A stretch of DNA of 64,000 nt from Nitrosarchaeum sp. (GCA_965223865.1 OZ245020.1:160001-224000), one strand, 5' to 3'; positions 37,886 through 51,033 are shown, counted from the first letter of the stretch. Notes: generated from the letters alone by a model not told the origin. Translations and numbers: made by a program.

Positions 37886-37969
37886 ATGACAAATAATTGG
37901 TGGAAAGGAATGCCAAAAGAGATTGAAATGGATTTAGAAATTTTATCAGAGTTTGAATCATTGAAATAA
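37886..37969 (+). CDS. Putative 27-aa leaderless micro-protein
   Basis: MTNNWWKGMPKEIEMDLEILSEFESLK; TATAAA at 37858-37863. Confidence 0.4.
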   Translation: MTNNWWKGMPKEIEMDLEILSEFESLK

Positions 37970-38032
37970 TTTATAAAATTATTTTTTAAAAATTAATAAA
38001 ATGAAAATAAATAATCATAAATCCAAAAATAT

Positions 38033-38470
38033 TTAATTTATCCTCATTAGGATTTGATCACATATTCGTCTCATCTCTGAATCTGAACTTTGGCTAGAAA
38101 TTTTTACTAGATCAGAATTAGTGATTATTCCTACTATTTTTTTATCTTTAATTACGGGAAGTTTGTGAATATTGTGAATTTTCATCAATTCTGCGGCTTC
38201 CCAAATGGTGTCACTTGGATCAATGGTAATTAGTGGCGTTGTCATTATGTCCTCAACTGGATTTAAAAGACTAACTCCCATTACTGCGTATCGTCTAACA
38301 AAATCTCTTTCTGTGATTATGCCTATGGGTTCATCATTTTTAGTTACTAAGATACTTCCTATATTGGCCTCATCCATCTTCTTTGCAGCATTTTTTATCG
38401 ATGAAGATTCTTCGATAGTAATTACATTTTTTTCCATAAAATCATCAACAAAAACATCTTCTCCTGACAT
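38033..38470 (-). CDS. CBS-domain protein
   Basis: Two CBS repeats (GIITERD, LPV..GIITNSD). Confidence 0.92.
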   Translation of the reverse strand: MSGEDVFVDDFMEKNVITIEESSSIKNAAKKMDEANIGSILVTKNDEPIGIITERDFVRRYAVMGVSLLNPVEDIMTTPLITIDPSDTIWEAAELMKIHNIHKLPVIKDKKIVGIITNSDLVKISSQSSDSEMRRICDQILMRIN

Positions 38471-38797
38471 TACGTGTTTTTGTTTTCATTTAGATGTTAA
38501 AAGAATCATCAAGAATTTCAAAATTGATAATTAAATATTATTAAACAATCTCAAAAATACTATTTTTAAATAAAGAATTCAGGTTGTTACTTCTCTGAAT
38601 TTAGTTTGTTTTCAGATTTTTATCAATAATTTCAATATGAATTGCTCTGCAAAGAAAGAAGATGCTAATGATAGTGATTTTTGAAGTGTAAATCAGTATT
38701 GCTTCTTTAATTTATTGTTAAAAATGGTGTGAAGAATTAAAGCTAAAACAACATGCAATAGACTAATACCACTTAAGAAAGAAGATTCCAAGAAAAT

Positions 38798-39613
38798 ATG
38801 ATGGTAAAAAAATACAAGCCAATCATTTCATACAGACTAAGAGAAATTCCCATAAAGGAAATTAAAATTTGGAAGGAGGCACAGGCCAGAAAACTAGACA
38901 GAGAGGGAATATCTGAACTTGCAAAATCAATAAAAAATGAAGGATTGTTAAATCCACCACTTGTACAAAAGCAGGATAAAAATACGTATTTGCTAATGTC
39001 AGGTCAAAGACGACTTGCTGCCATGAAGCGTTTAGGTGCAAAAAAGATCCCAGTTCATTTACTTACCAAAAAAACAGAATATGATCTAGAGAATGCAAAA
39101 GCAGCGTCTGTTATAGAAAATATTCACAGAAATGACATGAATCATAAGGATATTGCGGAGGCCTGTAAGTTTTTGACAGAGCAAGTTGGTAAATCAGCAG
39201 CGGCAAGATCAATGGGAATGTCAATGCCTACATTAAAAAAATACTTGGGATTTGCTGGTGTTCCTGACAACTTAAAGTCGTTAGTGCCCAAAATGATTTC
39301 AAGAGATGAAATGACTAAACTTTACTTTGTTGTACCAAATATTACCAAGGCGCAAAAAATTGTGCAGAAAATATCAAATTTTGATTCCAATCTCCGTAAA
39401 AAATACATTACTGCCCTTATGCGTTCACCAAAATCATCTCACGCTAAATTGTTACAACGTGCAAAAGCAATGCAAATAAAACAAAATGTATCCATTCACT
39501 TATCAAAAACTGCAGCAAAGAAGCTTGCAAGAGAATCAAACAAACAAGACATTACAATTGATGAGATGGCTGCTAAAATAATATCTACTTATCTAAAACG
39601 TAGAAAAAGATAG
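38798..39613 (+). CDS. ParB/Srx N-terminal domain protein with HTH
   Basis: ELAKSIKNEGLLNPPLV, SGQRRLAA, ENIHR. Confidence 0.87.
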   Translation: MMVKKYKPIISYRLREIPIKEIKIWKEAQARKLDREGISELAKSIKNEGLLNPPLVQKQDKNTYLLMSGQRRLAAMKRLGAKKIPVHLLTKKTEYDLENAKAASVIENIHRNDMNHKDIAEACKFLTEQVGKSAAARSMGMSMPTLKKYLGFAGVPDNLKSLVPKMISRDEMTKLYFVVPNITKAQKIVQKISNFDSNLRKKYITALMRSPKSSHAKLLQRAKAMQIKQNVSIHLSKTAAKKLARESNKQDITIDEMAAKIISTYLKRRKR

Positions 39614-39891
39614 AACGAAGTAATTTCAATTATAAAAATATACAAAGATTCAAGTGATTCTAATGATGTGAAAATAAACAACATTACTCATTTTGTCTTT
39701 CAAAAAACTACTAAACAATAAATTCAAAATCTTTAATTTGTAAGAAGAGAAGGTGATATGTCGAACACAATTCGGCTGGTGGACGGGTTATGATTAGGTA
39801 AAGACCTGGTTATTACTTGAAATTCATTATCAAATATATTCAAATCATAATCCTAGATTTGTACCTTTTTTGTACAAAGATAGATCTTGAT

Positions 39892-40635
39892 TCAGAGCAA
39901 TATCTCATTTTCAGAGTATTGTGGATTTTTTTTAGGAATATCAAAAATTTTCAGAGATTCCAAATATTCAAGATGTTTTGAGGTTGATTTGAGATCTCCA
40001 AAAGAGACCATTATTCTGTCATTATGTTCAGGGACGTATTTAGAAATATCTGAAAGATATCTTTCTCCATTAACATAAAAAACGAGAAATTTATTATCTT
40101 CAGTACAAAATCTACCATTATTGACCGATGAATTATAGTTGTTTATTATTATGCAGTTTGGTGTAACTTTCATTTCCAATGATGTGAACAGCATCTCTAA
40201 TGGAACTCCAGTTGCATGTCTATGAATTAGATACGGATTGTGATTCTCAAAGTGGATGTATTTACTTGACATCTGAAATTGTTTCAGACCAAAGTTTAAT
40301 TGTACATCATCTATAAAAATTGCAATTGCAGCATGTGCGTGGTCACTTCCATATTCTCCAATATTATATTGATTCTTCAAACTTCTCTCAGGATCTAATT
40401 GTATTGCATTTTGAATTATTTTTGAATCAATCTCATTTTGGTTAATAAAATAATATGAAAAGAAACTCAAGGTAATAATTACAAAAGATATTGCTATTAT
40501 TACAAATACTCTGTTTGTTGAATTAGATTGGATTGGTTCTGTATCAAAATATTCTAAATTACTCTCCTGAATACGACCAGGTAGGCTGTAATCTGAAAAG
40601 TCCTTAGGAATAGTTTTGTTATCATCTTCAGGCAA
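39892..40635 (-). CDS. Membrane-anchored hypothetical protein (HAH/IHFE/IHRH)
   Basis: TM helix then His-rich motifs and YVNG. Confidence 0.75.
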   Translation of the reverse strand: MPEDDNKTIPKDFSDYSLPGRIQESNLEYFDTEPIQSNSTNRVFVIIAISFVIITLSFFSYYFINQNEIDSKIIQNAIQLDPERSLKNQYNIGEYGSDHAHAAIAIFIDDVQLNFGLKQFQMSSKYIHFENHNPYLIHRHATGVPLEMLFTSLEMKVTPNCIIINNYNSSVNNGRFCTEDNKFLVFYVNGERYLSDISKYVPEHNDRIMVSFGDLKSTSKHLEYLESLKIFDIPKKNPQYSENEILL

Positions 40636-40730
40636 CAGTTAATCCACAAAATTTAATTCTATAAATTTCCTAGACATCCTAGAATATTGAATCTTTTAAA
40701 ATTTGGATCAATTTTGTTTCAAAATATTAA

Positions 40731-40744
40731 AGCGGGTCTAGAGG
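40731..40744. repeat. att direct repeat (copy of tRNA-Lys 3' end)
   Basis: Identical to 50201-50214. Confidence 0.85.
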
Positions 40745-40918
40745 TCTGCATGCTGCCAGCGGTTTCTAAGAATTGGCTCTCATTATAATATAGACAGTAT
40801 AATTTTAAAACATATTGAAGGGTGCGAATCCTTTCAGATTTGAGCTTAATTTCGACTCAATTTTCAGGGTTCAAATTTGATTGGTTTGCACACCAAATAC
40901 TGTTTACCGAGTATTGGT

Positions 40919-42130
40919 TTAGTCGATTCTTTGAGATTCTGAGATTTTCCAGCAGTGATCATAAGTAAACAAATCAACACCACCAAGTCTGTCAATCCAT
41001 TTAGGAACTACTTCATCAGTGCATTGTTGTGTTATTGTATCAGCATAGATTTGGAACACTAGCCAAGGATTAGAGAATCCAACTTCTTGTCCTATTGCCA
41101 TAAAAGATACTTCTTGGTTGGCTTTAGCTGCACTAGCTTGAATGTCTTGGAAGTATTCTTTTTGGATTTGAACATCTTCAGGAGTTCCAAGACGTGTCAA
41201 GTGTCCTCCAACTAATATATCAAAGTCATATTCTAGAACTTTGTCATGTGCTGCAAGAAATTCTGGAACATCTTGTGCCATTGCCAAATCTTTGAATGGT
41301 GTCCATCCAGGGAAGATTACATCAATTAACATCAGAACTTTTTGGTTTGGAGCATAGATGAAGATGTTTCCTGGTTCATGCATTGGTCCATGATATGCCA
41401 ATTCTAATCTTTGAGTTCCAACTTCAAGCGTGTAAGTATCCTCAAATGTTACAGTTGGTATTGGTCTATTAGGATCATTTCTTTTTGAAAGCGTGTCAGC
41501 TGCTTCTTGATGTGCTATGTATACTACATCATCAGGAAACATGTTCATTGCTCCTACATGATCATTGTGAGTATGGCTGTAAATTACATGAGTAATTGGT
41601 TCTTCAGTAACTTCGGCAATTGCTTTGAGATAGTTTTCTCCAATTGATGGAGGAGCATCAACTACAATAACTCCTTTTCCAGTTGTAAGAAACATTGCCT
41701 GGTATGCACCTTCAGTAACCCAGTAAAGTCCATCTTTGATTTCTTCAACCAAATATCCTTTGGAGTAATCAATTTGAGGACCTATTGATGTTTCAGGAAG
41801 TGGTGCTGCTGTTCTCATCTTTTCAGGATGTACCTCAAACATTGAGGCTAAAACTTGCATATTTGCAGAGTCTTCAAGAATTGTTCCCCATCCACGTTCA
41901 ACTAAAGCAGATGCAGTGGAGGGAGTCACACATGCAATTCTTCCATGAGTGCTTTCCATCCAAATTTTGTCAACACAAATTGGAGAGGAATCAGCATTTA
42001 CATCTAAGATAGAATTTGAGAAAATGATTCCTGATGTTAAAATTAACAATGACAAAAACACGTAATCAGATTTCAAACTATTTGAAATTGTGTTTAGTAT
42101 CTTAAAAGTCAATTCTTCCCATCTCCCCAT
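40919..42130 (-). CDS. Secreted MBL-fold metallo-hydrolase
   Basis: YSHTHNDH, H..GN, VGGH; signal peptide and ACVTP...ERGWG module; start uncertain. Confidence 0.88.
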   Translation of the reverse strand: MGRWEELTFKILNTISNSLKSDYVFLSLLILTSGIIFSNSILDVNADSSPICVDKIWMESTHGRIACVTPSTASALVERGWGTILEDSANMQVLASMFEVHPEKMRTAAPLPETSIGPQIDYSKGYLVEEIKDGLYWVTEGAYQAMFLTTGKGVIVVDAPPSIGENYLKAIAEVTEEPITHVIYSHTHNDHVGAMNMFPDDVVYIAHQEAADTLSKRNDPNRPIPTVTFEDTYTLEVGTQRLELAYHGPMHEPGNIFIYAPNQKVLMLIDVIFPGWTPFKDLAMAQDVPEFLAAHDKVLEYDFDILVGGHLTRLGTPEDVQIQKEYFQDIQASAAKANQEVSFMAIGQEVGFSNPWLVFQIYADTITQQCTDEVVPKWIDRLGGVDLFTYDHCWKISESQRID

Positions 42131-42998
42131 TTTGAAAATCCTTGATTGCTTGCTGTAATTCTTCTTCAGTATTCATCACAAATGGACCGTATCGTTTTAC
42201 TGGTTCTCCAATTGGAGTTCCCCCTAACAAAAGTAATTCCAAAGATTCTGTTGCGTCACTAGGGTTAGAGAAAGTAATCTCGTTTCCATTGTTTTCAAAG
42301 AATACAGCTTGTTCCTTTTTTGCAAGTTTTTGTTCAATACCAAATAATCCCTGACCTTGTGCAATGTATGCAAAGGTGTTGAAATTATTTGGAATTTCTT
42401 GTTTAACTTGAGCTCCTGGTTGCAATGAAAAATGCAAATACATTATGGGAATTTTAGTATCAATTACTGCCTTTTTTCCCATTGATTGACCAGCAATTAC
42501 CTTTACACGAACTTTACCGTCTTTACTTTGAGAGACAGGAATCTTATCTGATGGAATCTCTTGATAACGTGGCTTTGTCATCTTATCTTTTTTTGGTAAG
42601 TTAACCCATAATTGGAATCCATGTAGTCTCCCACCTTTTTGTGCAAATTTGTTTTCTGGCATCTCAGAATGAACAATACCAGATCCTGCAGTCATCCATT
42701 GCACATCTCCAGAATGAAGTTTACCTGAATGTCCTTTGGAGTCTTTATGCTCAAAAGAACCATCAATTACGTATGTTACAGTCTCAAATCCGCGATGAGG
42801 ATGTGCTGAGGCTCCTTTTGCTTCTCCTTTTTCTAATATTACAGGTCCCATCTCATCTAATAACAAGAAAGGATCAAAATCTCTTAAAGCATAATTTGGG
42901 ATTGGTCTATGTACAGTAAAGCCATCGCCTTCAAGAGTAGTTTTAGCAGTAACTATCTCTGAAACATTTCTTTGGTTGGATTTCTGAACTTGTGTCAT
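42102..42998 (-). CDS. Pirin-family protein
   Basis: DPFLLLDE, HPHRGFETVTY, QWMTAGSGIVHSE, GFQLWVNLP, GPFVMNT. Confidence 0.96.
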   Translation of the reverse strand: MTQVQKSNQRNVSEIVTAKTTLEGDGFTVHRPIPNYALRDFDPFLLLDEMGPVILEKGEAKGASAHPHRGFETVTYVIDGSFEHKDSKGHSGKLHSGDVQWMTAGSGIVHSEMPENKFAQKGGRLHGFQLWVNLPKKDKMTKPRYQEIPSDKIPVSQSKDGKVRVKVIAGQSMGKKAVIDTKIPIMYLHFSLQPGAQVKQEIPNNFNTFAYIAQGQGLFGIEQKLAKKEQAVFFENNGNEITFSNPSDATESLELLLLGGTPIGEPVKRYGPFVMNTEEELQQAIKDFQNGEMGRIDF

Positions 42999-43073
42999 GA
43001 GAAAAATTACGTATTTTATTATATAATCAGGCTGTCTACTTTGTATTGCAAAGCTTACCCCTAGGAGATTATC

Positions 43074-43616
43074 ATGCCAACTAAAAATACAGAGACTGCT
43101 TCGTTTAGGTTGGATTCAGATAGTTTAGAGAAGCTCAGAAAAGAAGCTGAAGACAACGATTTGAGTCTCAATCAATTGCTAAATCAAGTAATTGGAAATC
43201 ATGTGAATTTTCGCTCTGTTGCAAAATCAGCTGGTTTTATGACAATCCCAAAACCTGTTCTCAAAAGAATCATGGGAAAATTCTCTGAAGAGGAAGCAAG
43301 AGAAATCGGAAGAGAACATTCTGAAAAAGATGCAGAATCTATTCTTTGTATGCTTAGAAATGAATTCAATGTAGATGATTTTCTAGACACAATGGAATAT
43401 TGGGTCAAGGATGCAGGTTTTTCAATTAGACATGACGTTGAAAATGATATTCACAAGTATGTAATTCAGCATGAACTTGGAAAAAACTGGTCATTATACA
43501 TGTCAGAGTTTATCAGCCAAACAATAGAAAAAATGACTCGAAGAAAAGTAGAATCACGAATTACAGACAATACAGTTGCATTTACTGTCGATAAATCAAA
43601 AGTGGTTGAAGGATAG
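43074..43616 (+). CDS. Ribbon-helix-helix regulator with C-terminal sensor-like domain
   Basis: TASFRLD...LRKEAE..SLNQLLNQV RHH; IQHELGKNWS; divergent from pirin. Confidence 0.75.
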   Translation: MPTKNTETASFRLDSDSLEKLRKEAEDNDLSLNQLLNQVIGNHVNFRSVAKSAGFMTIPKPVLKRIMGKFSEEEAREIGREHSEKDAESILCMLRNEFNVDDFLDTMEYWVKDAGFSIRHDVENDIHKYVIQHELGKNWSLYMSEFISQTIEKMTRRKVESRITDNTVAFTVDKSKVVEG

Positions 43617-43897
43617 GCTCACAGGCCAATAGTCGTTTTGCAAATATTGGCATAATAATCACTGCTTGTTGTTAATTGAAAATCTGTGATTCTACTTTCT
43701 TAAATTTGATTTTTGAACCAGAAACTGTAATGTTGGTGAAGAAAAAAGGCCTACTCCTATAATCACAGCACAACATGTATGGGGTATAGATAAGGACCCA
43801 AAAAGTGGTATAACGTTACAGTTTATAGATTCATACTTGTTTGGAAACTAATGAAAGTTTAGCTATACAGTTTTACGCATGGTTTATGGATTAGAAT

Positions 43898-44233
43898 CTA
43901 CTCAAATTGTAAATTCCATTGCTTTGACCAACGTCTTATTAGAAAAATTGCAAACAATATCGTTCCTATTTGAACTCCTACTGAAAATATGAATTGGTTA
44001 TCATCTACTCCATAGTAAAAAATCATGACATTTGTGAATCCTTCCACCAAATCTTCATCTTCTGTGGGCAAAAAAACAGATGATGCAATTGATACTGGTA
44101 TTGCTACAACAAGAATCATTATCATCAGATATTTTCGTAGTTTTTTTACTCGATATGCTGCATACATGTCAAGAATCGGAATTATGCAGAAAATTGTTTG
44201 AATCGTCAGGTCTACTTTTCCTTTTGCAGGCAT
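43898..44233 (-). CDS. Hypothetical membrane protein
   Basis: QTIFCIIPILD.YA.YRVKKLRK; 3 TM. Confidence 0.75.
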   Translation of the reverse strand: MPAKGKVDLTIQTIFCIIPILDMYAAYRVKKLRKYLMIMILVVAIPVSIASSVFLPTEDEDLVEGFTNVMIFYYGVDDNQFIFSVGVQIGTILFAIFLIRRWSKQWNLQFE

Positions 44234-44350
44234 GGTTTTATGAAAATATGATGATTAATTATACTTGCTACTCAAAAACAGTTCAGGCCTATGTGGAATT
44301 GAACTCAAAAAGAGGATACTTTATGAATATCTAATTTGGAGACGAATAAA

Positions 44351-44998
44351 ATGAAATTTTTTATTATGATACTTCTTGCAATTTTGGTTTCAGGTACTTT
44401 TCTTATATCTAACATAAGTGCAGAAAAACAATTAGAACTCTTGGTAAGTCCAATCATCCCAAAACTTGTCCATTCTGATGAACCTGTTGATTCTCTGATA
44501 ATTCGAGATGTTAACAACAGCCCTGTTTGGGATGGTGCACTATATCCGATTGTTGGGATTGATTTTGTTGAAGGAAATGCATATCACATTATTGCAAAAA
44601 AATCTGATGATTTTCAATTTCCTGAAAATAAAAAATATGAATTGATTGAAATTAAACATATTTTCAAACCTCATAAACCATATTCTTGGAAGAGTCTTTG
44701 TGCTCCTGGGTATCTCATAGATCCTCATGGCGATGATTGTGTGTTTGTTTTTAGGTGTAGTGAAGATGCATATCCAGGAAGACCATGTATCATAAATTGG
44801 ACAGAACAAGATTATCTTAGACCGTTACACCAACAAAAAGTAGGAATATTGCCCGAAGATACAATTTGTTTGGAAAATTTACAATTAATTATTGACAATG
44901 ACAACACTCCGGTTTGTGTAAAACAATCCTCTGTTGAAAAATTGTTGGAACGTGGTTTCATACTTGGAAAAAATAACAATGATTCACCATACGATTAG
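44351..44998 (+). CDS. Secreted hypothetical protein (array member 1)
   Basis: MKFF signal peptide; C-terminal PVCVK..SVEKLLERG module. Confidence 0.75.
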   Translation: MKFFIMILLAILVSGTFLISNISAEKQLELLVSPIIPKLVHSDEPVDSLIIRDVNNSPVWDGALYPIVGIDFVEGNAYHIIAKKSDDFQFPENKKYELIEIKHIFKPHKPYSWKSLCAPGYLIDPHGDDCVFVFRCSEDAYPGRPCIINWTEQDYLRPLHQQKVGILPEDTICLENLQLIIDNDNTPVCVKQSSVEKLLERGFILGKNNNDSPYD

Positions 44999-45006
44999 TC
45001 TAGAAA

Positions 45007-45759
45007 ATGAAAACTAGAGTTCTAATCGTTCTTGGTATAATTTTGGCAGCAACCACTATGACTGCTTTTTTTATTTTTCCTGGTGTTTCCCACTTTGTAT
45101 TAGGCAATGATACTCTGACAAATCAAAATCTGGATGTACATCTGAATGTTACTGGAATCAAATCTCACTATGAAATTGGTGAGCCTATTGCATTTTCTGT
45201 TCAAGTAAAATCACTGGGAAAAACTGTGCCCTGGCCGCAATATCGCATTTACCAAGATTACGTGGACATTTCCTCCGAACCAGTCTATTCCAGAATGTAC
45301 ATGACTCCAATAGAGCCAGAAGACAGACAAAACTCATTTGAATGGAGAGAGAAAACCTGGAATTTTCCTCTAGAGGATGATGACCCAATCAGGTTTTCTG
45401 ATAAAGGAAACTATACTCTCCGTGTAGACGTTGATGCAAAAAAACATGCTTTGGTTGATTTTCAGATAGTTGATTACAAAAATCCAGAAAGAGATGCCAA
45501 ACTGGATGCTGGATACAAGCTGTATCCTGGTGTTGGTTGGGTACCTCCTGATGAACTAGAAAATCAACAGCCGCTCTACAGGGTCAATCCAGACAATCCT
45601 GGAGAACTAATTTTAGATGTTGATGCGATGCAACAAGTTCAGGAGATTTTAGATTATTGTGGTCCTCCAAAATATCAGGGATTTGCATATGGTCTGGAAT
45701 ATTCCAATGGAACGCATGTCATTGACAACAATTCTTGCGAATGGAGAAAAATAAAATGA
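45007..45759 (+). CDS. Secreted hypothetical protein (array member 2, MKTR start)
   Basis: MKTRVLIVLG signal; Ig-like GIKSHYEIGE segment. Confidence 0.8.
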   Translation: MKTRVLIVLGIILAATTMTAFFIFPGVSHFVLGNDTLTNQNLDVHLNVTGIKSHYEIGEPIAFSVQVKSLGKTVPWPQYRIYQDYVDISSEPVYSRMYMTPIEPEDRQNSFEWREKTWNFPLEDDDPIRFSDKGNYTLRVDVDAKKHALVDFQIVDYKNPERDAKLDAGYKLYPGVGWVPPDELENQQPLYRVNPDNPGELILDVDAMQQVQEILDYCGPPKYQGFAYGLEYSNGTHVIDNNSCEWRKIK

Positions 45760-46148
45760 AAACCAGCAAGCTGATCATGACAGGAATTTTGGGAGTCATA
45801 CTGTATGTTGTTGTGATGTTTTCTTTTCTGATATTTGTTGCCTCGCCGCTCCAGCAACAGGCAATGATGAAATACGAATCAACTGATCTTGCAAAACAAT
45901 TTCTGGAAACCTATCCTGAGTCGGGAATAGTGGCAACTTCTGGCGATTTTTTTGAGAAGCATACGAGTTTTACATATTCTAAAAATGCCAGATGGGTTTC
46001 GTTGACATTTTCTGAGGGAATTGATGGTCAAAAAACAGTCTACAAGTGTGAAAGAATCACCTCCTCACAGGAACCAGCAGAGATATTCTACTTCGAGGAC
46101 CCCTCTCCTGAAACCATCAAAAACAACGTATGTGGAGAATATGATTAG
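45756..46148 (+). CDS. Membrane-anchored hypothetical protein (array member 3, MKTS start)
   Basis: ATGA overlap with previous stop. Confidence 0.75.
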   Translation: MKTSKLIMTGILGVILYVVVMFSFLIFVASPLQQQAMMKYESTDLAKQFLETYPESGIVATSGDFFEKHTSFTYSKNARWVSLTFSEGIDGQKTVYKCERITSSQEPAEIFYFEDPSPETIKNNVCGEYD

Positions 46149-46151
46149 AAA

Positions 46152-47228
46152 ATGAAAACCAGACTCTTGATACTCCTTGCATCTGTTGGATTGTTGGTTT
46201 TGATTCCACACGCATTTGCCTCCGAATCATTCCATGGAACCTCAAGTTTTGAGAATGCCCCTTTAGAACTAACCCCGGGAAAACCGACAAAGTTTGAAAT
46301 AAAATTCCGATACACAGAGGGCCCATACGCCCTAAGCAATCTTTCTCCAATAATTGATGTCAGTCCTGCCAGTGCCATCCCAACGGTTCGAATTGATACA
46401 GAACCGCTTGAAGGAATTACACAAGGTCAAGTTGCAAGGATTCCTGTAACAGTTACAGTAAACCCAAACATAGACCATGAAAAGATATTTCTCAGCATTT
46501 CTTTTACTGGGAATCATTTTTCTAGTCGCTCTGATGCATTTTACAAAAGCTCTTGGACAGATTCAATTGCATTTGATATTGCTCCAAAAGACAAGGCGGA
46601 TATTTTTGTAGACTATGAAATCATTCCATGGGAAGATTTTGAATATGAAATCATAGGAAAGGGCGCAATATTCAAAAATGATCTAATGGGACTGGCAATT
46701 CTGGAGGCAGGAACACAATATTTTGCTATCGTAAAGGCTGAATTTACAGAATCAAGTTTCGGGGACAAACCAACAGCAGTTGATGCAACAGCAGGATACG
46801 CAATCAAGAAAGGTGACCACATACCACGCCCGCCAATGCATGAAAATGCAACAGATAAGGAGCATATGGAATTTTCAATGAAACAGCAAAAACTAATTGA
46901 AGAATTTCCTAAACAAAGTTCAATAGAAGACTCGTATGACTTTGTAGTTGACGTTAAAAACCCATTTTACATCAAATTTCCATTTGTAGTTGAGGAATCC
47001 GGACAGTACACAAGACAGTTCTATAGGACAACTCATATCTTTGAAGGTCCTAGTGGATCTGCTATGGGCGGTCTTGTTGTAGTTGACAAATTCAGCAAGG
47101 CAGTTGATGAAAACAGCGTATGCAAAAATGAAGATTTTAGGCGCCTGATAAAACATGATTATTCCACAGTAGTATGTGTTACGGGAGAAACGGCTTGGAA
47201 ATTAATAGGGCGTGGGTGGGGAATATAA
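46152..47228 (+). CDS. Secreted hypothetical protein (array member 4, MKTR start)
   Basis: MKTRLLILL..AFA signal; C-terminal VCVTGETAWKLIGRGWG module. Confidence 0.8.
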   Translation: MKTRLLILLASVGLLVLIPHAFASESFHGTSSFENAPLELTPGKPTKFEIKFRYTEGPYALSNLSPIIDVSPASAIPTVRIDTEPLEGITQGQVARIPVTVTVNPNIDHEKIFLSISFTGNHFSSRSDAFYKSSWTDSIAFDIAPKDKADIFVDYEIIPWEDFEYEIIGKGAIFKNDLMGLAILEAGTQYFAIVKAEFTESSFGDKPTAVDATAGYAIKKGDHIPRPPMHENATDKEHMEFSMKQQKLIEEFPKQSSIEDSYDFVVDVKNPFYIKFPFVVEESGQYTRQFYRTTHIFEGPSGSAMGGLVVVDKFSKAVDENSVCKNEDFRRLIKHDYSTVVCVTGETAWKLIGRGWGI

Positions 47229-47836
47229 AAACTAGAACTCAAATCATATTACTTTCAATTATTTTCATTGTAGGTTCTGTATCGATACTTTATGCAGTTC
47301 AGATTCCTCACTATTCTTTGGAGATTAAAGGAATGAAAGATACGTACCATATTGGGGAACAATACTCATTTTACTATACATTATCAGGATTTGGACACAC
47401 ATGTCATTCTTGGATCGTGTCTTATCCTGATCAGAATGGAGAGTTTAATCAAGCTGGAGAAGCTATTGATTGTTCTAGACCTACCAACAAAGAACTTTCT
47501 TATGATTCTAGAAAAGACTCTAGAATATTTTCATCCAAAATTCCAGAAATTGAAGGCAAATATAATGTTACAGTATCACTAGAAGATTTAGAACCTGTAA
47601 TTTATGAATTCAGAGTTATATCTTCCTCTCAGAATGCCTATGAATTAGATGAAGCGTTGTGTATAGGAGGAAGAGGTTACATTGTTAATGACGAATGTGA
47701 ACGAATTGGAAAATATGATTCTGTTACAGGACTTCCAATAGTTGAAAACAAAGAACAATGTGACATGTTAGAGGGCAAGTGGGATGAAAAACAAAAAACT
47801 TGTGATTCAAAATATGGAAAAGAAAATGAAAATTAG
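47225..47836 (+). CDS. Secreted hypothetical protein (array member 5; start codon ATA instead of ATG)
   Basis: ATAAAAACTAGA = (I)KTRTQIILL; Ig-like GMKDTYHIGE; ends ENEN*. Confidence 0.65.
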   Translation: MKTRTQIILLSIIFIVGSVSILYAVQIPHYSLEIKGMKDTYHIGEQYSFYYTLSGFGHTCHSWIVSYPDQNGEFNQAGEAIDCSRPTNKELSYDSRKDSRIFSSKIPEIEGKYNVTVSLEDLEPVIYEFRVISSSQNAYELDEALCIGGRGYIVNDECERIGKYDSVTGLPIVENKEQCDMLEGKWDEKQKTCDSKYGKENEN

Positions 47837-48029
47837 ACTCTTGATTGTTGCAGGGATTGTTATTTTCTTGGTTGGGATTTCTGTATTGGCATATGAGATA
47901 TTTGGAGATTTGAATTTTAAACTTAGTTCAGACATAGAAGTTTCAATAATATTTTATGTGATAGTTCCGGGATTGGCAATTTCTGGCATAGGCATTGTTT
48001 TAGAGTTTGCAAAAAAGGAGTGTGATTAA
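47826..48029 (+). CDS. Small 2-TM protein (array member 6, MKIR start)
   Basis: GAAAATGAAAATTAGACTC junction. Confidence 0.7.
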   Translation: MKIRLLIVAGIVIFLVGISVLAYEIFGDLNFKLSSDIEVSIIFYVIVPGLAISGIGIVLEFAKKECD

Positions 48030-48491
48030 TGAAAACATATCCTATCCCTATAATTATCTGTTACTGTTCTAGTGGCATATTTTTCTATTTCATCAACAGC
48101 TATGCAAGAAAATAGTTTATCAAAACAATGCGACATTCCATATGATGTAAATTTTATAGAAAGAAGAGGAGTACCTTCAGCACCCAATGATGGAAAGCCA
48201 CACTATTCAATTGCAGAAGAATTTTCAATTTTCTATACTGTTCCAATTGGAGAATTTAGTGTAGATGATGTCTCTCATTCTTTAATATTGAAACCAGTAC
48301 CAACTTCGCATGGTTACATCATAATGTGTGATCCTTTACCTGTTTTAGAAAAAAGATTTGAGACAAAAATGCATGGATTGTTCGTTCTTGTAGACAACGA
48401 AGAGATTGAACCCAATTTGGTAAATAATGTGTTAAGAATTGATGTTAGTGGCAACACTAGCGTGGAGATTATAGGATTCAGGTTTGTTTGA
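48029..48491 (+). pseudogene. Secreted hypothetical protein (array member 7), MKT start out of frame with body
   Basis: TAATG overlap MKTYPIPI; body ORF 48072-48491 is 1 nt out of frame; VLVDNEE motif. Confidence 0.55.
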
Positions 48492-48560
48492 AAATGAAAA
48501 CTATGATTTTTGTCATTTCAATTATTCGCGAAATTAAAAAAATAAAAAAGAACAGATATG

Positions 48561-49610
48561 TTATTCCTCTACTATGAACAAACCTATCATCCCTGCATCT
48601 GCATGGCCAACCACATGGCAATGGAACAACCAAATTGCGGGTTTGTCGGGCTTGACAATGAATGACTCTAGCGTTCCCTGAACTAGCGGAAATGTCTGCG
48701 AAGTTATTGTAGTACCTCTCTCGTTTGTGCTTGAAATCATCTTGTTTCCGTGCAGATGAAATGAATGAATTTGCTCACCAAGATTTGTAACGTGAAACTC
48801 AACTGTTTCTCCAACCTTTGCCTTGTAGACTGGCAGTGTATAATTGAACTGCTCAACAACGCCATCCAGTCCTTCTTCTGCAAAGATTTCTTCAAGAGCC
48901 TTTTCTCCGCCTGGTACACCCATTCCGTTCATGATATAGTATGGCACGGGTCCCTTCTCCATTCTTTCAACGTCATGGCCTATTTCTGCCATCACGATTG
49001 GAATGTGTCTGTCAATGTATGGTCTTGGGGGATTTCTTTCGATTATGATATTTCCATAAAGACCCTGCAAAATATGGTCCTTGATTCCAAGGCCCTTAGA
49101 TGCTGCATGGTCATGGAAAAATGTCGTTCCCCAATCATCTACATTGTATTCATACGTCCATTCCCCTCCTGGTGGAATCATTGAGCCTGCTCCAACTCCC
49201 GTGATTACGTTTACTGGGGATCCGTCATGTTTAGGATCATAGTCACTCATGTGGGCATGGAAGCTGTGAGTCACGTCATGATTGTTGATTACCCTGACTC
49301 GCAGCAGGTCTCCTTGGCTTGCCAATAGAGTCGGTGCGGGCACTGTTCCGTTGTATGTCCAAGCGTGCCAGACTGCGTTGTCTGATACTTGAATGTCTGT
49401 CTGCTCAATTATCAACGTATACTCCCTGACTGGCTGTTCCTCAGCTTTGGCAACCTGTGGATGTAAATCAGATACGCCTTGCGTCTGAACATCAGAGACA
49501 TTATGTGTTTCTGCGTTTAGGTTTGGCAAGAACTGAATGTTTCCTGTTGCTGCTACAATTAAAATTGCAAGCAGGATTGGAATTCCTATCAAACCAATTT
49601 TTTTCTGCAT
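48561..49610 (-). CDS. Two-domain multicopper oxidase
   Basis: Signal peptide; WTYNGTVPAP, HSFHAH, FHDH; HSFHLHG, WLFHCHVVGHADAGM. Confidence 0.92.
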   Translation of the reverse strand: MQKKIGLIGIPILLAILIVAATGNIQFLPNLNAETHNVSDVQTQGVSDLHPQVAKAEEQPVREYTLIIEQTDIQVSDNAVWHAWTYNGTVPAPTLLASQGDLLRVRVINNHDVTHSFHAHMSDYDPKHDGSPVNVITGVGAGSMIPPGGEWTYEYNVDDWGTTFFHDHAASKGLGIKDHILQGLYGNIIIERNPPRPYIDRHIPIVMAEIGHDVERMEKGPVPYYIMNGMGVPGGEKALEEIFAEEGLDGVVEQFNYTLPVYKAKVGETVEFHVTNLGEQIHSFHLHGNKMISSTNERGTTITSQTFPLVQGTLESFIVKPDKPAIWLFHCHVVGHADAGMIGLFIVEE

Positions 49611-49804
49611 AATGACTTTCTCTGTGTTGTTAAATTAAATCAAAAGTTGTTTCTCCGTTTTAGCAATTAACAGATGGATTCTTATGGGATTTCATATCTC
49701 TGAACTGTAACAAACTTTTCTTAGTTCTTGATCCTGCGAATAAACTAAACAATGAAACCTGAACTGATGTCCATGTTGTCTAATTTAGATTCAAATTCTT
49801 ATAT

Positions 49805-50152
49805 TTACAATAGCATATTATCGTCTAGTTTTCCTATTATTTCATTTCTTTTCTCATTATCGTTAATTCGTTTGATAAATTCTTTAATTGATCTTCTGAC
49901 ATATTCTGCAATTTCTCCACGTTCTACTCTTTCTTTATGAAATGACAGAAACCTCATCACATTTGCTGTAACCCAACTGTTTCCGTTCTTTTTTGATTTT
50001 GAGATGAACTGTTTTGCTTGCTCTGCTAGGTTGCCTTGCAGTTCTAGAAAATCAAAAAAGTTTCGCATCCTTCTTTTGTATCGGTCTTTAGTAGCATCGC
50101 TCTTCATTGCATACAGGAACAATTCCAATGGTTCTGATTCGTATTCTGCCAT
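49805..50152 (-). pseudogene. Truncated tyrosine integrase (N-terminal domain only)
   Basis: FLYAMKSDATKDRY.RR...FFDFL...ERVERGEI resembles thaumarchaeal integrase N-termini; next to tRNA att; no catalytic R-HxxR-Y domain. Confidence 0.75.
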
Positions 50153-50202
50153 TTTTCTGCCTTCTGTTACACTTGGAACCAATAAAAGAACCACTAAAGG
50201 AG

Positions 50203-50276
50203 CGGGTCTAGAGGGATTCGGACCCTCGACAGCAGGATTAAGAGTCCTGTGCGCTACCTGGCTGCGCCATAGACCC
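50203..50276 (-). tRNA. tRNA-Lys(CTT)
   Basis: Reverse complement GGGTCTA...TAGACCCG; CAGGA-CT-CTT-AA-TCCTG anticodon arm. Confidence 0.96.
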
Positions 50277-50335
50277 ACGAAAATAAAACTGCCTAGAGTT
50301 GTTATTAACCTTAAGATTGTAAAATAAAGGAAAAT

Positions 50336-50938
50336 TTAGTTCTGAGCTTTAGCTTCAATTTCACTGTACTTCTCTAGAATTGCTGTAAGTGCAGTTGAAA
50401 CTGGTACGTCATTCATTTTTTTCTTTTCGGCAAGAAGTTTCTGGTATGCATCTAGTGTGATATATACTGGAATTGAACCATTTCCTTCAAGAAGTCCTCT
50501 AACGTTATAGAGTGCTGTTTCCATTCCTCTTTCAGCAGACTTGGCAAACTTTGCCTTATCCATAATTGCTCCTAATGGACCAAATGGCATTTCATAATCC
50601 ACTGTCATAGTAACTCGCGTAAGATTATCACCAAGTGATTTGAATTCATTGGTTATTTGCCAGTGTTTGAATGGTCCTTCAATTTGCTTTGCAGAAATCT
50701 TTTCATTTCGAACAAATTCGATTGTTTCACAGTCCCATTCTAGGCGTTTACCGCTAAAGTCACCAATAATTCTAAATGTTGTACCAACACCCATTCCTTC
50801 TTTGATATCCATTGGAACTACTGTCATTCCTACTGCATCAGTTTTAATTTGATCAGAAACATGCTCTGGTCTTGCAAAGTAGGTAAAAACATTCTCTACG
50901 GGGGTTTTAACATCGATTGATTTTGTTACGACGGTCAA
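50336..50938 (-). CDS. SRPBCC/polyketide cyclase-family protein
   Basis: SIDVKTPVENVF, EGPFKHW, VDYEMPFGPLG. Confidence 0.87.
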   Translation of the reverse strand: MTVVTKSIDVKTPVENVFTYFARPEHVSDQIKTDAVGMTVVPMDIKEGMGVGTTFRIIGDFSGKRLEWDCETIEFVRNEKISAKQIEGPFKHWQITNEFKSLGDNLTRVTMTVDYEMPFGPLGAIMDKAKFAKSAERGMETALYNVRGLLEGNGSIPVYITLDAYQKLLAEKKKMNDVPVSTALTAILEKYSEIEAKAQN

Positions 50939-51033
50939 CGATTCAATGTCTTGCCAATAAGGATTTAAAGGTTTTGAAGATTTTCCTATGTAAATTGATT
51001 AACACTATATTATTCTTAGAATATGGTTAATTT

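Follow-up and report, generated by a model that had tools for sequence, protein, structure and literature searches.

A recurrent start leader in exported-protein gene arrays of Nitrosopumilaceae and its candidate role as a point of gene exchange

A 64,000-nucleotide (nt) stretch of a Nitrosarchaeum sp. genome (GCA_965223865.1, OZ245020.1:160001-224000), hereafter the window, contains eight co-oriented open reading frames (ORFs), g1 to g8, packed into positions 44351-48577. Behind a head gene, g1, the genes g2-g8 (45007-48577) begin on a common start junction, in which stop codons, an ATG and the first codons of a signal peptide follow each other within a few nucleotides. The question that this locus raises is why genes with largely unrelated bodies should start on the same DNA. 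The original prediction, made from the sequence of the window, took the junction for a recombination or insertion site of modular surface-protein cassettes, and the whole for an integron-like or shuffling array inside a tRNA-integrated element. The analysis presented here suggests that the junction is part of a leader that is rather likely to be a Nitrosopumilaceae-specific module, combining a signal peptide with a stop/start signal and doubling as a portable homology patch for the shuffling of whole genes, since it is the sole sequence that neighboring genes have in common.

The shared leader and its spread

Junctions were compared within the window's own genome (G000, 2.01 Mb) and across a family set of 151 Nitrosopumilaceae genomes from 27 genera, with genes called by a crude rule (longest ORF, first ATG) that miscalls some starts. 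Over 24 starts in G000 arrays the leader follows the consensus [T/A/G]AGAAA ATG AAA ACT AGA CTT TTG ATA ATT GTT GGA, the first eight codons of which (ATG to ATT) encode MKTRLLII. With at most one mismatch, the 14-mer AAAATGAAAACYAG is matched five times in the window against 0.38 expected, a count reached by none of 100 shuffles, and its nine exact copies in G000 all fall at gene starts (reversed control, 0). These copies are distributed over four loci, at 205, 1028-1035, 1050.9 and 1685 kb, while a fifth G000 array, at 1974-1977 kb, carries AAG or AAA leader variants. When G000 was searched with a nucleotide profile (nhmmer) built from 21 of its array leader sequences, 18 matches were obtained at E<=0.01, all of them among the 21 seeds, and no non-seed match at E<0.05. 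MKTR is the commonest 4-mer among the signal-peptide-like N-termini of G000 (8/224), and the listed MKTR genes with such N-termini all lie within arrays.

The 19 array-internal genes of G000 were then set against its 336 other close-coupled genes. The bases T, A and G occupy positions -6 to -4 with frequencies of.68,.79 and.84 in the array genes, as opposed to.31,.46 and.14 in the others; a spacing of 3 nt is found in 8/19 versus 10/336, with a further six array cases at -4 nt; and stops in all three frames within -9 to +11 are present in 9/19 versus 19/336 (Fisher p = 1.7e-6), and in 0/63 of the other coupled genes that start with MK. ACT serves as the third codon (Thr) in 17/21 array leaders, whereas ACT makes up 36% of Thr usage genome-wide and is found in 6 of 20 non-array MKT genes. 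Synonymous conservation beyond what MKTR requires is hence seen in the ACT wobble position and accompanied by conservation at -6 to -1, but it does not extend to the Lys wobble (AAA.68, AAG.26), which matches the codon bias of the genome. Taken together, the coupled-gene controls, the ACT excess and the profile search indicate, as had been predicted, that the junction is a DNA module conserved in its own right and not a consequence of Lys-rich signal peptides. Codon bias or chance as the origin of the junction was ruled out by the shuffles, the reversed control, the ACT excess and the coupled-gene controls, and the 336 controls likewise ruled out a general property of coupled genes.

Upstream ORFs read the junction in three ways, as a stop (TAG AAA ATG), as ...RK* (AGA AAA TGA), in most cases behind a C-terminal membrane anchor with WRKRK at its end, or as ...ENEN* (GAA AAT GAA AAC TAG); the DNA therefore varies less than its reading frame does. 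The conserved core, from -6 to +12, is centered on the start codon and includes positions that the peptide does not need. Upstream of -6 no conservation was found in an alignment of the junctions of g3 cassettes, and 22 junctions (-30 to +40) revealed no conserved hairpin or fold (mean fold z = 0.01, sd 1.1). Conservation of this kind could be expected of a shared cis-regulatory target, through which the translation of all array genes would be controlled in concert by a small RNA or RNA-binding protein, and ribbon-helix-helix (RHH; Arc/CopG-like) genes, possible array regulators, do occur beside arrays in G000, G153 and G004 (window 43074-43616; L028:7569-8093; L029:62-619). We nevertheless consider such a target improbable, given that the nhmmer search brought up no complementary non-coding copy, its matches at E<0.05 being gene starts throughout, that the junctions have no conserved structure and that the leader breakpoints described below would be left unexplained.

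Across the family set, AAAATGAAAACYAG has 107 matches in 33/151 genomes and 11/27 genera (reversed control, 16), and co-oriented clusters occur in G153 (17), G133 (11), G145 (11), G109 (9) and G096 (7), so that tandem arrays, as predicted, are found in G000 and in other genera; clustering is dense in several genomes of three genera. Among 185,579 species genomes, 75 stretches contain an 18-mer of the junction, 51 of them in records titled Nitrosopumilus, Nitrosarchaeum, Nitrosotenuis, Nitrosopumilaceae/-ales or Thaumarchaeota, with the other 24 scattered over unrelated taxa as by chance. Judged by these searches, the array class is specific to Nitrosopumilaceae. The arrays fetched for comparison (G003, G004, G096, G109, G133, G145 and G153), which were picked via motif presence, are built alike and include each of the three forms of the junction. 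By crude gene calls, internal array genes start with MKT in 62 of 91 cases. Array heads tend to carry another recurring leader, M[KR][YF][FLV]..., which is preceded by non-coding sequence, tttcatattgt being an example (window 44351; L015:16424; L021:15394; L025:1897, 3410 and 5554; L027:58), and a tally of 22 head ORFs under the first-ATG rule gave about 10 with M[KR][YF] or MYLKHF, two with MKTR and about seven start miscalls. A description of the junction was not found in a limited literature search, which does not show that it is unpublished, nor in passages of 10.1101/2024.04.23.590705.

Similarity breakpoints at array leaders

The clearest comparison is provided by G000 1026422-1052732, which is collinear with G004 over ~26 kb at 98.5-99.1% identity except for one block of 3,637 bp. 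The block consists of four genes between two leaders (G000 1028350-1031986) and is missing in G004. The flanking alignments overlap by 37 nt on G004, where the junction joins the upstream side of the left leader to the downstream side of the right leader, and the crossover is therefore placed within 15 identical bases, agaaaATGAAAACTA. Three of the block genes have a 93% copy elsewhere in G004, 27 kb away, bounded at -1 and +65 of leaders. Synonymous divergence (dS) between the extra block and this copy is ~0.2, as compared with 0.015-0.08 in the flanks, which argues for an older or foreign copy. As a separate observation, the identity of the whole region (G000:C1:1026422-1052732 versus G004:C1:109392-132068; L016, L017, L029, L013) stands against 92-94% in the backbone around the window, which suggests that all 26 kb may have been recently exchanged between the two species.

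A single-gene exchange can be seen between G153 and G109 (Nitrosopumilus). Both carry a 250-amino-acid (aa) gene whose 95% identity spans from -3 of the gene's leader to +14 of the following one; the genes around it show no resemblance down to 7-nt words, and for one backbone gene the identity is 83%. Leader positions +24 and +11 mark the ends of two additional alignments with 90-94% identity. The g3 cassette of the window is found in six different neighborhoods (the window and five other places) with different genes on both sides, its similarity beginning at ~-6 and fading 12-25 nt into the next gene, and a G004 homologue of g1 (57% aa identity), whose similarity stops at +7 of the g2 leader, has a leader with a 39-aa stub behind it in place of g2-g8. 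These alignments show breakpoints in leaders, their ends scattering over ~-5 to +65 with no single position. The proposal that the junction is a recombination site for modular genes thus finds support in the G000/G004 and G153/G109 comparisons, where gene gain, loss and exchange map to the junction in arrays that are not collinear between genomes; the opposite expectation, a dispersed motif in collinear arrays, does not describe the data, because the motif clusters and the arrays are non-collinear with breakpoints in the junction.

Part of this pattern would also be produced by ordinary paralogous operons, in which tandem or segmental duplication of one ancestral secreted-protein gene spread a leader that was then kept solely as a specialized signal peptide and good coupling junction, recombination being incidental and without a part in preserving the sequence. 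Whole array segments are indeed duplicated between G000 loci; homologues of g4 (45-76% identity) mostly keep the leader as protein, with 16 of 23 aligned sequences starting MKT; the Lys wobble follows codon bias; and dN/dS is 0.03-0.44 in ten array gene pairs, which are therefore real genes under ordinary purifying selection. Duplication would not, however, account for neighboring bodies without detectable similarity, for conservation of -6 to -1 and the ACT wobble beyond codon bias, for the reading of the same DNA in three frames by upstream ORFs, or for a 95% cassette in unrelated neighborhoods of two species whose backbone is 83% identical, and we regard it as rather unlikely.

Several points weigh against reading the leader as an exchange patch. 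One G000/G004 breakpoint (G000 1052732) lies inside an ORF, and one G133 boundary lies inside a gene body. The similarity of diverged paralogues ends at gene boundaries anyway, each of which is a leader, so only near-identical comparisons discriminate; what discriminates in these alignments is a clean indel, a translocated block and a 95% cassette. All clean events are outside the window array, which itself has context variation for g1 and g3 only. Moreover, selection purges gene-breaking rearrangements, and breakpoints at gene boundaries would be enriched by selection alone. The four-gene event may have been either a deletion or an insertion. The frequencies in the fetched loci of other genera (MKTR in 35/65, ACT in 48/50) are biased upward, because these loci were chosen by motif. 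Finally, a single transcript, translational coupling and export are all predictions.

In sequence, the ~40 nt of the leader encode the charged n-region of a predicted Sec-type signal peptide or anchor together with its initial hydrophobic residues. With TAG at -6, TGA in ATGA and TAG (or TAA/TGA) after ACT, every frame is closed no more than 11 nt from the ATG, so that an upstream ORF arriving in any frame ends in '*', '...RK*' or '...ENEN*', and the distances of -11 to +8 nt suit archaeal termination-reinitiation, making coupling a plausible consequence. If the leader also acts as homology patch, recombination between two leaders could delete, insert or swap whole genes, both in one genome and across species, and each recombinant would regenerate intact, terminated and start-equipped genes. 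Arrays would accordingly behave as integrase-free cassette arrays in flexible islands, ending in orphan leaders. More tentatively, and as something possible rather than probable, the leader may be a selected, recombinase-free exchange device, whereby any gene placed between two leaders would be automatically terminated, re-initiated and exported, allowing Nitrosopumilaceae a trade in single surface-protein genes out of a pool common to several species, for example under viral pressure.

An enzyme-driven alternative would be a true site-specific cassette system, in which an unlinked or unrecognized recombinase acts at the 17-mer and cassettes circulate as in an integron. Such a system would fit the uniform orientation of the cassettes and their short or absent spacers, the terminal orphan leaders, which resemble an empty insertion site, the single-gene exchange with the motif at both of its borders, and the position of arrays in variable islands, one of them adjoining a tRNA. 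In G000, however, Phage_integrase (PF00589) matches are found only at 860-866, 1627 and 1856 kb, none within 50 kb of any array (arrays at 205, 1028-1058, 1685 and 1974 kb were compared). No recombinase family was detected among 37 distinct flanking or array-region proteins searched against Pfam, five of them also against PHROGs; a 19-mer of the junction has 0 matches in viral contigs; and neither the lack of a conserved hairpin or inverted repeat nor the scatter of similarity ends from -5 to +65 would be expected of a fixed site. We therefore hold a site-specific system to be very improbable, the least probable of the explanations considered, and recombination at leaders to be most likely driven by homology rather than by a dedicated enzyme, as far as the alignments allow us to infer.

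The window array, its proteins and its island

The window array is located between a reverse-strand gene for a small membrane protein (43898-44233) and a convergent multicopper oxidase gene (48561-49610). All eight start positions of the original prediction were confirmed, and so was the tight spacing it described, measured as 8, -4, 3, -4, -11, -1 and 2 nt from g1 to g8 in order. The full 17-mer, TAGAAAATGAAAACTAG (45001-45017, + strand; repeat family D1), can be read directly as TAG, TGA and TAG, one per frame, plus ATG, and upstream genes end in the differing frames foreseen (TAG, ATGA overlap and ENEN*). The eight starts are nonetheless not equivalent: g1 carries the other leader type, and g5 (ATA start), g7 (frameshift) and g8 (stub) are degraded or orphan members. 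Six of the seven start codons of g2-g8 stand in ATG AAA AC[T/C/A], or ATT in g6, and the g5 position reads ATA. The bodies are largely unrelated, as claimed, with no mutual BLASTP similarity, the exception being a C-terminal WING-49 domain (NCBIfam NF058652, curated cut-off 22 bits) in g1 and g4, two proteins that do not match each other in a BLASTP search of their own genome. Their description as secreted genes does not fit every product, since g3 and g6 look membrane-anchored, and the array products are best described as predicted exported or membrane-anchored proteins.

All array genes are on the + strand. The first, g1 (44351-44998; 215 aa; WING-49 at 59.7 bits), has an MKFFIMILL signal peptide of the head-of-array type MK[YF][FL] behind non-coding DNA. 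A TATA promoter-like stretch, cTTTATGAATAT, and a GGAG at -13 to -10 (44319-44341, + strand), ~30 nt 5' of g1, may represent the putative head of an operon, and the same promoter-like layout recurs at 37966-38006 (repeat family D2). A promoter and terminator scan gave counts no higher than shuffles, using a bacterial consensus that is uninformative for an archaeon.

The second gene, g2 (45007-45759; 250 aa), combines an MKTRVLIVLG leader with a body that matches no family; no homologue was found in the fetched loci, and an Atlas search gave scores below 0.9 throughout, its clusters of immunoglobulin-like (Ig-like) proteins being leads only. It overlaps by ATGA with g3 (45756-46148; 130 aa; MKTS), which has an N-terminal membrane anchor and is the most widely shared cassette of the array, with a 64% aa paralogue at G000:C1:1028350 and homologues at 60-65% aa in G003, G004, G133 and G153. 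DNA similarity to these paralogous and orthologous cassettes ends at the g3/g4 junction, TAGAAAATGAAAACCAGACTCTTG... (46146-46179, + strand), where TAG is followed by a 3-nt gap. The product of g4 (46152-47228; 358 aa; MKTR) begins with a signal peptide that looks cleavable (...AFA/SES), and it comprises two beta-sandwich domains and, at the C-terminus, WING-49 (28.3 bits).

For g5 (47225-47836), 203 aa are read from the ATA at the leader position (IKTRTQIILL), and an alternative in-frame ATG is available at 47174, within g4. Its body is a mosaic, residues 29-120 and 128-198 resembling parts of two different proteins. In a metagenome scan with g4, which returned a single 1.4-kb contig, behind the g4 homologue lie ATGATGAAAACTATA, whose ATG is intact where g5 has ATA, and an 8-aa leader stub. 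ATA replaces ATG in three leaders (G000:C1:1053782, 1057482 and window 47225), two of them heading ORFs of 16-21 codons, and one g4 homologue from the protein database reads IKSRLL behind an alternative upstream start; start-codon loss in array-leader genes is recurrent. The reading frame of g5 terminates in ...ENEN* 11 nt inside g6 (47826-48029; 67 aa; MKIRLLIVAG; two hydrophobic segments), the junction being read in the +2 frame. In g7 (48029-48491) the leader ATG AAA ACA at 48029 (TAATG; 28-aa ORF) and the body ORF (48072-48491, +1 frame) are separate, and g7 is probably a gene split by a single frameshift between leader and body; a homologue in G002 is 71% identical in aa, its N-terminal region being masked. 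The array closes with g8 (48494-48577), an orphan leader with a 27-aa stub that overlaps the convergent multicopper oxidase gene, and similar array-end stubs are found in two other G000 arrays (52 and 37 aa), in G004 arrays and in one metagenome contig. Unitigs of four read runs over 42000-51000, short and too fragmentary to weigh on either side, end near leaders (45796, 47837, 48478) and inside bodies (45304, 46907, 46926, 46058), and one variant (X5) in these short unitigs has 47814-47940 replaced by 18 letters. A look-up of RNA runs containing this region listed none.

Pfam returned no family for the window array bodies, and NCBIfam only WING-49 and sub-threshold matches. The 96 homologues of g4 are hypothetical proteins of Nitrosopumilus spp. 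A full-length relative was found in only 2 of the 151 species genomes, five more having relatives of the N-terminal domain with other C-termini. An AF2 model of g4 (mean pLDDT 67.8) predicts two beta-sandwich domains plus WING-49, and Foldseek returned only generic tandem beta-sandwich matches of Ig-like or adhesin type (TM ~0.2). The WING-49 module (~49 aa, C-V-x-P-S-x-x-x-K-L-x-E-R-G-W) occurs at N-terminal, internal or C-terminal positions in many exported G000 proteins (window 44351-44998, 46152-47228 and 40919-42130, and at least 13 others), with a WING-49-like stretch also at the N-terminus of the MBL-fold gene of the island; a literature search for the name gave 0 papers. In several genera, arrays also contain, or have just 5' of them, recurring genes for small Cys/His-rich proteins that are zinc-ribbon-like and not secreted (L013:10730-10942, L019:11436-11651, L024:4038-4253; L017:6353-6697, L013:1690-2034), one of them terminating in ...HQGL* directly on a TAGAAAATG junction.

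Together with the multicopper oxidase gene and genes for CBS, ParB-N, MBL, pirin and RHH proteins, the array forms a variable island of 12.2 kb (37985-50194) that is absent in G006, where, on contig C45, window position 37984 joins directly to 50195. The same position holds ~2.5 kb in G005, ~4 kb in G004 and ~11.6 kb in G003, and the pirin-RHH part is found 56 kb away in G004. Two other G000 arrays also lie within segments that relatives lack. The island abuts a tRNA-Lys(CTT) gene (50202-50276, - strand), and the claim of a tRNA-integrated element stands insofar as a strain-variable island adjoins this tRNA; no integrase was found with it, nor any direct repeat of at least 18 nt, as expected of att sites, between its ends. 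A 131-aa ORF without a Pfam or PHROG family (49805-50200, - strand) lies beside or overlaps the tRNA, and a relative with 69% DNA identity adjoins a tRNA-like stretch in G005; as pure conjecture, this ORF could be the N-terminal remnant of an integrase.

Known systems compared and other repeats

Integrons resemble these arrays in their co-oriented, tightly packed, unrelated genes, in gene-wise gain, loss and exchange at a short conserved junction, and in their place in flexible regions. In contrast to integrons, the arrays have no IntI-type integrase nearby and no attC-like imperfect palindrome, their junction lies inside the coding start and supplies ATG and signal peptide, and the crossover position is not fixed. 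The comparison holds for outcome and not for machinery, because no recombinase is near the arrays, no fold is conserved and similarity ends are scattered; of the predicted integron-like or shuffling array, the gain, loss and exchange of cassettes has thus been retained.

In Borrelia, the upstream homology sequence (UHS) of the surface-protein genes spans the start codon. In B. hermsii the UHS of the vmp genes is described as a short conserved 5' sequence of differing surface-protein genes and as the predicted crossover point of homologous recombination (PMC6011951). The arrays too have a short conserved 5' sequence spanning the start of unrelated genes, apparently used as a crossover point. 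In the course of infection, however, Borrelia uses gene conversion to bring silent archived copies into a single expression site, located on linear plasmids, whereas array genes each have their own start in a polycistronic array of free-living archaea; among them no expression site or promoterless archive was seen, the genes appearing to have their own ATG, an intact ORF and purifying selection.

Archaeal coupled gene pairs with ATGA or TAATG overlaps or gaps of a few nt, translated by termination-reinitiation, have been reported (PMC6728339, PMC10666635), and the co-directed genes of the window array have the same short overlaps and gaps; the three-frame stop and the -6 to +12 core are, in contrast, particular to arrays and not found in the 336 other coupled genes. 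VARTIG loci of Thermococcales are hypervariable, encode secreted Ig-like proteins and show shuffled downstream genes and interspecies recombination, and according to the same report no counterpart was found outside Thermococcales (PMC8416519). Such loci, like polymorphic-toxin-like cassette loci, share with the arrays hypervariability in archaea, secreted Ig-like proteins and shuffled downstream genes, but VARTIG variability resides in the C-terminal Ig domain of one large protein, whereas the exchange point of the arrays would be the N-terminal leader of all genes. Signal peptides of the YSIRK type illustrate how one signal-peptide type can head many unrelated exported proteins, as the array leader does; the latter differs in being conserved at non-coding and synonymous positions and in gene order (internal genes only), and in coinciding with breakpoints.

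Ammonia-oxidizing archaea are among the most abundant microbes, the content of their flexible islands consists mostly of uninterpreted 'hypothetical proteins', and we know of no genetic system for their phylum. The 17-mer offers a concrete, easily searched marker for a large class of island genes, and the leader suggests an explicit route by which single exported-protein genes could be added, lost or moved across species without a mobile-element enzyme. Were the leader kept for exchange, it would constitute a simple analogue of integrons and of antigenic variation in free-living archaea. The leader could also serve as a natural test bed for translational coupling.

Other repeats of G000 came to light in the same searches. 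Two short repeats contain ATGAAAAC[CT]AG and yet are not gene starts (ORFs of 10-38 codons): a ~45-nt repeat, aactggactttgtcaacctg.taaattcag+ATGAAAACCAGATT, in four places (G000:C1:745761, 751552, 1610107 and 1886988), and an identical pair (G000:C1:1405387 and 1846307). Two 377-aa ORFs (G000:C1:1164835-1165968 and 1183588-1184721), 18.7 kb apart, are identical in the 12 nt upstream of them and in residues 1-40, which suggests a segmental duplication.

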